Origin: a virus
Taxonomy: Duplodnaviria; Heunggongvirae; Uroviricota; Caudoviricetes
Reading direction: 5' to 3' (one strand)
Virus record (IMG/VR): IMGVR_UViG_2519899562_000018
Length of the DNA stretch: 32,756 bases
The translations under genes and the position numbers were made by a program. The notes beneath the pieces are model-generated. The model was not told where the DNA came from, searched no databases, and saw only the letters and a list, made by a program, of their open reading frames with translations. Of the stretch, positions 16,778 to 18,687 are shown one piece after another. Positions within the stretch are counted from its first letter, which is position 1; each line of letters begins with the position of its first letter.

Positions 16778-18092
16778 TTTAGGTTATGCCGCCACGCTTC
16801 CCTCAAAAGAGGCGGTGGCATACTTCCGCGCCAAAGGGGCGCATATCAGCTGGAACTGGTTCGAAACAGACGCGGATGTTCATGCCCGTTCGTTCACGGC
16901 GGCAAAAGTGGCACGCCTGGACGTACTGACCACACTACAGGCGGAAGTGCAACGGGCCATTGATGAGGGGATTTCACAGAAAGCATTTATCCGCACACTG
17001 ACCCCCCGCCTGCAAAAGCTGGGATGGTGGGGAAAGCAGATTGTGGTGGACAGCGCCGGTAACGCAGAAGAAGTGCAGCTGGGCTGTCCCCGCCGTCTGG
17101 CGCTGATTTACAACGTGAACACCCGCGTGGCTTACAATGCCGGGCGTTACACGCAGATGATGAACAACACGGACACGCATCCGTTCTGGCAGTATGTGGC
17201 GGTGATGGACAGCCGCACCCGCCCGGCGCATTCCGCCCTTAACGGTCTGGTATTCCGCTATGACGATCCGTTCTGGAATACACACTACCCACCCAATGGC
17301 TGGAACTGCCGCTGCCGTGTCCGGCCATTGTCTCAGACCCGTCTGGATGCAATGGGGTTATCCGTTTCATCCGGTCAGGATCATCTTTCCACCCGCAATG
17401 TTGAGGCTGGCGTGGATAAGCAGACCGGAGAAGTCAGAGAAATGCCGGTGACCACATATTCAGATGGCACCAGAACCATGACACCGGATGTGGGCTGGTC
17501 ATATAACCCCGGTTCGGCGGCGTTCGGCACAGACCAGGCGCTGCTCCGCAAGTTGATCGAGGTGAAAAGCCCGGCGTTACGGGAAATGGTGGTTCAGGAG
17601 ATGAACAACAGCCCGGAGCGGCAGCTGGCGTTCCGCATCTGGGCAAAAAACATCATGAAAACCCGGCGAGGCGGTAACGATATCCGCACGCTGGGCTTTA
17701 TGACCGAAAGCATTGCGCAGGCGGTGGAAAGCCGGACGGGAACGCCACCGGCCCGCCTGCTGGCGATGAGCGGTAAAAATGTGCTCCATGCGGACAGCAT
17801 GAAACATCAGAATGACGGTATCGCCCTGACACCGGAGGATTTCGGGCGCTTACCGGCAATGCTGGCAAGGCCAAAAGCGGTACTGTGGGACAAACGGCAC
17901 AACAATCTGATGTATATCGTGGAAAATCAGGATGGCAGTGTGCAGATTGCCGTTAATGCACCGTACAGCCTGAAGCGTCAGCCGGATAAACTGGATGTGA
18001 TTGTTAATGCTTACCGGGTTATCAATATGGATAAGCTGAAATCGGATATCCGGGGCGGAATGCTTGAGGTACTGGAAGGAGATATTGATTAA
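16761..18092 (+). CDS. Head morphogenesis protein (Mu F / gp30-like)
   Basis: 443 aa; position after portal; size matches Mu F. Confidence 0.8.
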   Translation: MAQGIDLGYAATLPSKEAVAYFRAKGAHISWNWFETDADVHARSFTAAKVARLDVLTTLQAEVQRAIDEGISQKAFIRTLTPRLQKLGWWGKQIVVDSAGNAEEVQLGCPRRLALIYNVNTRVAYNAGRYTQMMNNTDTHPFWQYVAVMDSRTRPAHSALNGLVFRYDDPFWNTHYPPNGWNCRCRVRPLSQTRLDAMGLSVSSGQDHLSTRNVEAGVDKQTGEVREMPVTTYSDGTRTMTPDVGWSYNPGSAAFGTDQALLRKLIEVKSPALREMVVQEMNNSPERQLAFRIWAKNIMKTRRGGNDIRTLGFMTESIAQAVESRTGTPPARLLAMSGKNVLHADSMKHQNDGIALTPEDFGRLPAMLARPKAVLWDKRHNNLMYIVENQDGSVQIAVNAPYSLKRQPDKLDVIVNAYRVINMDKLKSDIRGGMLEVLEGDID

Positions 18093-18213
18093 CGGTCAGT
18101 GGCGGGGGTCGAACCCGCATACATGATCCACCCGGAGGCAGGCACCGACTTTACCAGTTAAGCGTACACTGACCGCCTGCTTATTTTATATTCATATTTT
18201 ATACGGAGGCAAT

Positions 18214-18687
18214 ATGTCATCCATTGATGCCGCCGTCGTTGTTGACGTTACGCGTCTCCAGCGGGTCTTTGCCCGGCTTCAGTTTGTGGGTGGCGGAAAA
18301 GACCTGGCCCGCAGTGTGGCGTCCAGCCTTCTGTCATCGTCAGAAATGGCGTTTGAACAGGAAAAAGAGCCGGACGGCGAACGCTGGCATGACTGGTCAG
18401 ATCCTTACCGCAAGTGGCGTACCCGTAAGGGATACATGCCCGGCAAAATCCTGACGCTGAACGGCGATCTGGCCCGACGCCTGACCACGGATTATGGCGA
18501 CACCTGGGCGCTGATTGGATCAAATGAGCCTTATGCGGCCATTCATCAGTGGGGTGGCCTGCCAGGTATGCCGCCGGGACCGGCGGCCATTGGTGCACGT
18601 CCGTATATGGGCTTTGATCAGGTGGCAGAGCAGGAGATCATGGACGAAATCAGAAAACGCTTTAAAAAGGCCACAGAAACGCCTTAA
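18214..18687 (+). CDS. Virion morphogenesis protein (Mu G / gp31-like)
   Basis: 157 aa; position and size as Mu G. Confidence 0.7.
   Translation: MSSIDAAVVVDVTRLQRVFARLQFVGGGKDLARSVASSLLSSSEMAFEQEKEPDGERWHDWSDPYRKWRTRKGYMPGKILTLNGDLARRLTTDYGDTWALIGSNEPYAAIHQWGGLPGMPPGPAAIGARPYMGFDQVAEQEIMDEIRKRFKKATETP

Follow-up and report, generated by a model that had tools for sequence, protein, structure and literature searches.

Introduction

In type III toxin-antitoxin systems such as ToxIN, a structured non-coding RNA encoded beside a ribonuclease (RNase) gene neutralises the RNase directly. The tRNA-cleaving RNases (tRNases) colicin D and colicin E5 are matched by immunity proteins, ImmD and ImmE5, that mimic tRNA. 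Known tRNases with the BECR fold (for barnase, EndoU, colicin E5/D and RelE), these two colicins and the CdiA-CT toxins among them, cut the anticodon loop or the 3' acceptor end. Non-decoding imitations of the acceptor, T and D part of tRNA also occur, in YrlA and other Y RNA-like RNAs and in the corresponding domain of transfer-messenger RNA (tmRNA). MuF polymorphic toxins and polyvalent proteins combine an N-terminal MuF domain with a variable C-terminal effector, a protective gene downstream, mosaic exchange and orphan immunity genes (PMC5576092, PMC5512222). The subject of this study is a tRNA-like element of about 83 nucleotides (nt) in a 32,756-nt stretch of viral DNA (IMG/VR record IMGVR_UViG_2519899562_000018; the whole stretch is called the window below), a Mu-like prophage of the Shiga toxin-producing Escherichia coli (STEC) Sp18 type, where the element lies on the minus strand between the head genes F and G. 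On balance we favour the reading that its RNA is a dedicated partner of MuF-C, the predicted RNase domain at the end of the F protein, and acts as a non-cleavable mimic of tRNA, that is, as an RNA immunity factor or antitoxin to the F RNase.

The F protein of phage Mu (gp30) and its MuF-C domain are poorly understood. MuF-C has been placed among the BECR RNases, the copy in Mu gp30 being predicted inactive and those of its orthologues active (PMC5512222), and the RNA described here offers a concrete, testable partner for this RNase prediction of 2017. Neither PMC5576092 nor PMC5512222 mentions an RNA gene after Mu-type F, and no account of the RNA, of its family or of a link to MuF-C turned up in literature searches, whether by keyword or with the exact sequence; a paper on Sp18 and one on AcrIIIA1 proved irrelevant to the RNA.

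On the proposed model the locus would resemble a type III system in that an RNA encoded next to an RNase gene would restrain the enzyme directly, and tandem RNA copies, a further likeness, are seen here only in one phage (L520) and in the array of an integrative island. It would differ in that the RNA is a tRNA mimic and not a pseudoknot repeat, that the toxin would be a BECR-fold domain of a virion protein and not of the ToxN type, and that the RNA is usually present once and in the window stands downstream of F, on the opposite strand and with a promoter-like site of its own, as against an upstream array in the same operon. Whereas the colicin immunity proteins imitate tRNA with protein, the mimic proposed here is an actual RNA. 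The likeness to the MuF polymorphic toxins extends to each of the traits listed above, yet their described immunity factors are proteins; here the putative protection would come from an RNA gene, and the effector is the ancestral MuF-C rather than an added toxin. YrlA, in contrast to the element, is circularly permuted relative to tRNA and binds Rsr, and tmRNA has a G3:U70 pair and a tag reading frame; the model of neither matched.

A tRNA-like RNA between F and G

The gap between F and G measures 121 nt in the window, and the F stop codon and the RNA gene are 0-2 nt apart. In phage Mu, F and G overlap by 4 nt and the tRNA-like element is absent; on this comparison of sequences the element is an insertion in Mu relatives. 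A preliminary description of the window had noted a 9-bp inverted repeat flanking a GC hairpin, and the repeat is indeed exact, with CGGTCAGTG at 18093-18101 and CACTGACCG at 18167-18175. The parts of the element are as follows.

18093-18175, minus strand: tRNA-like small RNA gene, about 83 nt, an anticodon-loop-less tRNA mimic (Rfam, family model R1, PGAP annotation, covariation)
18167-18175, minus strand: 5' strand of the extended acceptor stem, positions -2 to 7, CGGUCAGUG (sequence; pairs 1:72 to 7:66 and -1:73 covary over 44 sequences)
18148-18164, minus strand: D arm, C + GCUU / AACUGGUA / AAGU (stem-loop 18163-18148), with the equivalents of A14, G18 and G19 (Rfam alignment, covariation, invariant columns)
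18119-18147, minus strand: substitute for the anticodon arm, a hairpin CUGCC-UCCG-GGUGG (18141-18128) flanked by GUG/CAU pairs and followed by a UGUAU 'variable loop' (fold)
18102-18118, minus strand: T arm, GCGGG-UUCGACC-CCCGC (sequence, Rfam)
18093-18101, minus strand: 3' strand of the acceptor stem with paired positions 73-74 (CACUGACCG), adjoining the antisense of the F stop codon

As read from these parts, the RNA carries an L-shaped tRNA core of acceptor stem, D arm, T arm and elbow-forming nucleotides. It shares with canonical tRNA (RF00005) the acceptor stem, U8-A9 (18166-18165, directly before the D arm), a D arm with G18/G19, a UUCGA T loop, a 5-bp T stem and a Levitt pair of the A15/U48 type. 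It departs from canonical tRNA in that the 7-nt anticodon loop is missing, in the window as in every other member of the family, together with U33 and the anticodon arm, its place being taken in the fold by the UCCG tetraloop hairpin; in that the discriminator is paired through -1:73 and -2:74; and in having an extra C after A9. No CCA is encoded and the window RNA has no free single-stranded 3' end. Lacking the anticodon arm and the 3' end of a tRNA, it does not belong, by its sequence, to the tRNA family as defined by function.

A permissive Rfam scan (cmscan, E up to 10, on the 700-nt stretch 17800-18500) matched tRNA (RF00005) at 18094-18173 on the minus strand with 31.0 bits (E=1.9e-4; gathering score 29 bits), aligning the acceptor, D and T arms and skipping the anticodon arm. 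The acceptor-like stem and T-arm-like hairpin proposed in the preliminary description are both contained in this alignment. Its remark that canonical D and anticodon arms could not be folded holds for the anticodon arm, which is absent, and fails for the D arm, which is present at 18163-18148. Besides tRNA the same scan gave only three chance-level matches, with no C4 / P4 CI-type antisense RNA and no YrlA; unlike it, Rfam at gathering thresholds over the whole window listed nothing. ARAGORN reported neither a tRNA nor a tmRNA in the window and related loci. A family covariance model (R1), built from 11 sequences, gives the window element (18093-18175) 89.6 bits. Single-sequence energy z-scores are weak (-1.8 on the minus strand, -0.9 on the plus strand), so the support for the RNA comes from the comparison of homologues and not from thermodynamics. 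Of the tools suggested at the outset, the covariance search came out in favour of a structural RNA, the tRNA finder did not, and folding was weak. The preliminary description counted the lack of a covariance-model call, of a transcript and of conservation in related phages against a tRNA-like element, which survives in so far as the call and the conservation in related prophages both exist.

Three more specific identities were considered and rejected. A HisRS-type (histidyl-tRNA synthetase) G-1:C73 identity element is ruled out because the pair covaries as G:C, A:U and U:A and is a stem extension. The AlaRS (alanyl-tRNA synthetase) identity element G3:U70 is absent from the RNA, in which pair 3:70 is C:G, and tmRNA is excluded on the same pair and on the silence of ARAGORN.

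A covarying RNA family

The family model locates the element directly upstream of G, in antisense, in 32 of 37 sources (35 loci fetched via the G protein, Mu and the window). More than 40 distinct variants, many of them diverged members added by pattern scans, were found in the F-G slot of diverse Mu-like prophages. ARAGORN calls none of about 40 distinct variants a tRNA; genuine tRNAs caught by the same pattern do get called. In 44 distinct sequences, pairing holds in 96.3% of 792 pair cells and falls to 34-57% if the partners are slid; changes on both sides are seen in 13 of the 18 pairs, and the covariation score was reached by 0 of 500 shuffles. In the D stem, four of five pairs have changed on both sides; the T stem alternates between GCGGG/CCCGC, GCAGG/CCUGC and GUGGG/CCCAC, and pair -1:73 between GC (18), AU (12) and UA (6). 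Because the acceptor helix runs on through -1:73 (and -2:74), no NCCA end is left free. G-U cells outnumber A-C cells by 37 to 7, which identifies the minus strand as the functional RNA strand and, together with the Rfam match, upholds the orientation first proposed.

Little or no variation is seen at the equivalents of U8, A14, G18, G19, U54, U55, C56 and A58. Where a tRNA has its anticodon arm, each member has a hairpin of its own sequence, length and loop, often with a UUCG or UCCG tetraloop; over about 40 folded variants the loops range from 3 to 14 nt and have no conserved sequence. In one relative (L002c) this hairpin shows compensatory changes relative to the window. In distant phages the flanking genes are only 70-79% identical and the RNA region 82-88%.

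Such patterns of conservation mark the element as a gene family and not a decaying tRNA, in agreement with the 'tRNA-like small RNA' among the options of the preliminary description, which had also considered a degenerate tRNA and a remnant integration target. That the element is a tRNA pseudogene or a leftover tRNA-type integration site without function of its own is disfavoured and seems barely credible. ARAGORN is silent on it, the Rfam score is barely above threshold, and some E. coli copies with T-loop mutations lose their annotation by the Prokaryotic Genome Annotation Pipeline (PGAP), all of which would suit decay. However, the anticodon-less architecture is kept with compensatory changes in more than 40 diverged variants, the RNA outconserves the genes beside it in distant phages, the promoter-like site with its -10 hexamer is conserved, and the G-U asymmetry and covariation point to selection on one RNA strand, the minus strand; the host, moreover, is a transposing Mu-like phage.

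Single T-loop changes, to UUCAACC or UUCGCCC (equivalent to window 18107-18113), are seen in L190, L191, L194, L196 and others; the copies concerned form a class of 96.2% identity that is unannotated in RefSeq. A scan of genome contigs with the T-arm pattern also matched genuine tRNA-Leu genes of Clostridia, and a metagenome scan yielded few new family members and many genuine tRNA-Ser genes. The genuine tRNAs that the family model scores best are class II tRNA-Ser with a similar 'GUAC...UAAUGGUAA' D region (metagenome loci L274, L275, L325, L327, L337 and L340), a similarity that hints at the ancestry of the mimic. A short metagenomic contig (L320 1-1116) holds two different family members with a fragment of an F C-terminus between them and truncated G starts, and gives the impression of two Mu-like prophages that have decayed or recombined.

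The MuF-C domain and its co-occurrence with the RNA

The proteins on either side of the slot and the relevant parts of F are listed here.

16761-18092, plus strand: gene F, Mu gp30 homologue, 443 amino acids (aa), stop codon TAA at 18090-18092
aa 58-187 of F: Phage_Mu_F domain
17799-18047, plus strand (aa 347-429 of F): MuF_C domain (PF18819), predicted BECR-fold RNase
17787-17807, plus strand: codons of H343-A-D-S346-M-K348-H349, candidate catalytic K-H motif (alignments A3, A4)
18214-18687, plus strand: gene G, Mu gp31 homologue, ATG at 18214, the neighbour downstream of the RNA slot

The MuF_C match scores 29.5 bits with the whole protein and 32.3 bits with the C-terminal fragment, against a Pfam cut-off of 27.6. 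No sequence homologue of MuF-C was found in the PDB. The domain was modelled alone, a model of full-length F being of low confidence (predicted local distance difference test, pLDDT, 62). The predicted structure has the N-terminal helix followed by a 4-5-stranded sheet by which the BECR fold is recognised, and a fold search with it matches BrnT, CdiA-CT toxins, colicin D and RelE. Within HADSMKH, K348-H349 are invariant in alignments A4 and A5, and a Lys-His pair fits the colicin-D-type active-site arrangement described for the BECR fold (bioRxiv 10.64898/2026.08.28.747851). The F proteins that adjoin the RNA share EKxLxHxDSx(K/R)H and K(R/K)Q...LDxVINx(Y/F), and both motifs are lost in Mu gp30 and in another phage that has no RNA. 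From these features we infer that MuF-C of the window is an active tRNase.

The link between the domain and the RNA, which the preliminary description had missed, shows in their joint distribution. F homologues were collected from viral contigs with two differently centred queries, the RNA was scored by the family model, and the K-H motif and the F-G spacer were read from the sequence; the 86 distinct F proteins fall into three classes.

RNA present, K-H motif present: 56 F proteins; F-G spacer 49-340 nt where the start of G can be placed
RNA absent, K-H motif absent: 29 F proteins; F-G spacer -14 to +11 nt in 27, with two outliers, one of 290 nt and one without a value
RNA absent by the model, K-H motif present: 1 F protein (L539); F-G spacer 108 nt

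In the 56 RNA-bearing proteins the motif is of the colicin-D-like HxDSxKH type and lies in MuF-C. It is missing from Mu gp30 and from 29 of 29 proteins of the RNA-less class; phage Mu, the laboratory model, has neither RNA nor motif, an absence that the pairing of the two explains. The two spacer outliers are probably cases in which the script misplaced or missed the start of G. At L539, F has HADSFKH, and the slot holds a TATAAT hexamer followed by a long terminal stem, CCAUGAUG/CAUCAUGG, and lacks the UUCGA T loop; the RNA there is probably a diverged relative invisible to the model, or it may have been replaced by a different partner RNA.

When the tree is built from the N-terminal two thirds of F only, RNA and motif together must have switched state at least 13 times. 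There are RNA-less F proteins whose N-terminal part is 99.5% identical to that of RNA-bearing ones, and the versions without the motif have at least 12 different replacement sequences. As about 300 nt separate RNA and motif and the coding sequence in between is conserved, one deletion cannot remove both.

Module exchange and orphan copies

The end of F and the RNA also move together. One segment of the window is a mosaic module:

17840-18213, no strand assigned: last ~80 codons of F, RNA gene and promoter, 53-78% identical to three E. coli prophages

The flanks of this block, on both sides, are 93-100% identical to the same three prophages. RNA copies are found away from F as well. An 8-kb integrative island in mdtP of E. 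coli STEC17-183 (NZ_CP075652.1) has three tandem tRNA-like genes at its end and no F gene:

L002 3760-4600 / L221 33646-41640: island in STEC17-183, with integrase, helix-turn-helix (HTH) protein, Ash-like, Icd-like, DUF4222, RepA helicase, single-stranded DNA-binding protein (SSB), PerC and Mor-family activator

The cores of the island RNAs are closest to three different E. coli phage subtypes (88%, 83% and 86% identity), and such arrays occur in about 14 genomes. By analogy, the island copies resemble the orphan immunity genes of polymorphic toxin systems. The array lies downstream of the Mor-family activator, and a run of GTGAAA-type repeats stands just upstream of it. PGAP labels one of the three copies tRNA-Tyr and another tRNA-OTHER and misses the third; the tRNA-Tyr call arises from a GUA triplet in a 6-nt hairpin loop and is regarded as coincidental. 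Tandem copies next to an F gene were seen at L520 2517-2825, where three strongly diverged members (19-37 bits) follow an F with HANRPKH and the F-G spacer is 340 nt.

These data bear on whether the RNA has anything to do with F. Phage-encoded tRNAs that counter tRNA-cleaving defences are known, and a tRNA mimic could likewise titrate a tRNA-targeting defence nuclease of the host or another tRNA-binding factor, adjoining F by accident. The promoter-like site of its own, as expected of a moron (an additional, self-contained gene that has been inserted into the late operon of a phage), would suit such a decoy. We nevertheless judge an F-independent role very improbable, for RNA and motif disagree nowhere besides L539 across at least 13 changes of state, and the RNA is swapped together with the C-terminus of F.

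Promoter-like and terminator-like signals

Upstream of the RNA, on its own strand, there is a candidate promoter:

18183-18212, minus strand: sigma-70-type promoter-like site of the RNA, -35 TTGCCT (18212-18207), 18-nt spacer, -10 TAAAAT (18188-18183)

In the promoter scan the -10 element of the window ends 7 nt before the base of the stem; the ribosome-binding site of G overlaps the -35 element. Of 41 variants, 36 have a -10 hexamer that matches at 5 or more of 6 positions and stands 3-12 nt upstream of the stem, although their spacers have diverged. Several lineages show, directly after the RNA and still between F and G, a GC hairpin and a T run that look terminator-like by eye. The window has no terminator directly after the RNA; a terminator-like hairpin with T run is present on the minus strand at 17782-17806, inside F in antisense and about 290 nt downstream of the RNA 3' end, and could be the end point of read-through from the RNA promoter. 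The arrangement of these signals is that of a self-contained small-RNA gene set in a late operon in the opposite orientation. A processing signal of the late mRNA, another of the early suggestions, is unlikely since the tRNA-like strand is antisense to that mRNA.

The orientation raises the question of antisense control. Like lambda OOP or a type I antitoxin, the RNA could act in cis on the late F-G mRNA, to which the gene is antisense and fully complementary, by causing its cleavage or by blocking the toxic end of F, the tRNA shape being only a stabiliser. Such a role would also account for the link to an active F, and in the window transcripts could run on into the MuF-C coding region, up to the site about 290 nt away. 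However, overlap with the F coding sequence is not conserved, given the terminator-like hairpins directly after the RNA in several lineages; the conservation of the tertiary core and the covariation of the helices exceed what antisense pairing needs; and the island copies are antisense to no F gene. We therefore regard cis-antisense regulation as improbable.

Proposed mechanism

In the mechanism that we favour, the tRNA-like RNA would bind the RNase domain of F and neutralise it as an RNA immunity factor or antitoxin. Protection would thereby extend to the lysogen, to the cell in which virus is being produced and to cells into which a superinfecting relative delivers F. The RNA is devoid of both parts of tRNA at which the known BECR tRNases cut, the anticodon loop and a free 3' acceptor end. 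RNA immunity is favoured because the gene is positioned directly downstream of a variable effector domain, because RNA and F C-terminus are exchanged together as a cassette, because there are orphan RNA copies without a toxin and because the RNA disappears in just those cases in which the putative catalytic residues do; all four features are hallmarks of toxin-immunity pairs. A bolder and more tentative extension, which may well prove wrong, is that this is the first RNA immunity factor for a phage-delivered RNase of the polymorphic-toxin kind, that the mimic plugs the tRNase-type MuF-C of the Mu-family ejection protein F, that cognate specificities of RNA and domain are swapped between prophages as cassettes and that a satellite-like island stockpiles orphan RNAs against incoming phages. 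Were the RNA an inhibitor, tRNA mimicry would join the known means of RNA antitoxins, the immunity genes of polymorphic toxins would come to include non-coding RNA, and pathogenic E. coli and Salmonella would harbour a so far hidden level of conflict among phages and between phages and satellites.

A possible but doubtful alternative is that the RNA is a cargo or cofactor of MuF-C: the domain might take it into the capsid for injection with F, depend on it as a subunit that confers specificity or activates, or convert it into an active product. The co-occurrence and module-swap data fit this equally well. Proteins of the F family are part of the head and are believed to be delivered along with the DNA, and an RNA-binding role has been predicted even for the inactive domain of Mu (PMC5512222). 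However, the loss of the RNA tracks the loss of the K-H motif, as fits the neutralisation of a harmful activity, and orphan copies on an island without F are easier to understand as protection than as cofactors. A guide function is further argued against by the hypervariable, often tetraloop-capped substitute hairpin.

Several points count against RNA immunity. Co-occurrence indicates a functional coupling without a direction, and the RNA could be a cargo, a cofactor or a substrate instead of an inhibitor; adjacency alone would cause RNA and F end to be inherited together. Inhibition of MuF-C by the RNA is, like the activity of the domain, a presumption drawn from these patterns, and we infer transcription of the RNA from promoter-like sites only. 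The gene being antisense to the late operon, late transcription might suppress the RNA just when F is made. Many E. coli copies carry the T-loop point mutations G57A or A58C while F keeps its K-H motif, so that either these changes are tolerated or the constraint is relaxed in those copies. Finally, part of the family was gathered with a sequence pattern that fixes several of the 'invariant' positions; the protein-anchored members are free of this bias and keep the same invariant features.

Distribution and genomic context

A sequence similar to the window element is present in 173 of 5,426 complete E. coli genomes. At the identical locus the RefSeq (PGAP) label is 'tRNA-OTHER', and some annotations under this label may denote functional non-decoding RNAs rather than junk. 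A BLAST search with diverged family members against cultured phage genomes returned only two records of Shiga toxin (Stx) phages, each with an inserted Mu-like phage. In strain E2855 (NZ_AP018796.1, L267 1-2000 + 38900-40131) an identical Mu-like prophage lies between the lambdoid-phage genes DUF1367, DUF1378 and DUF826. Taken with the two Stx-phage records, these flanks imply that the element is often housed inside another prophage.
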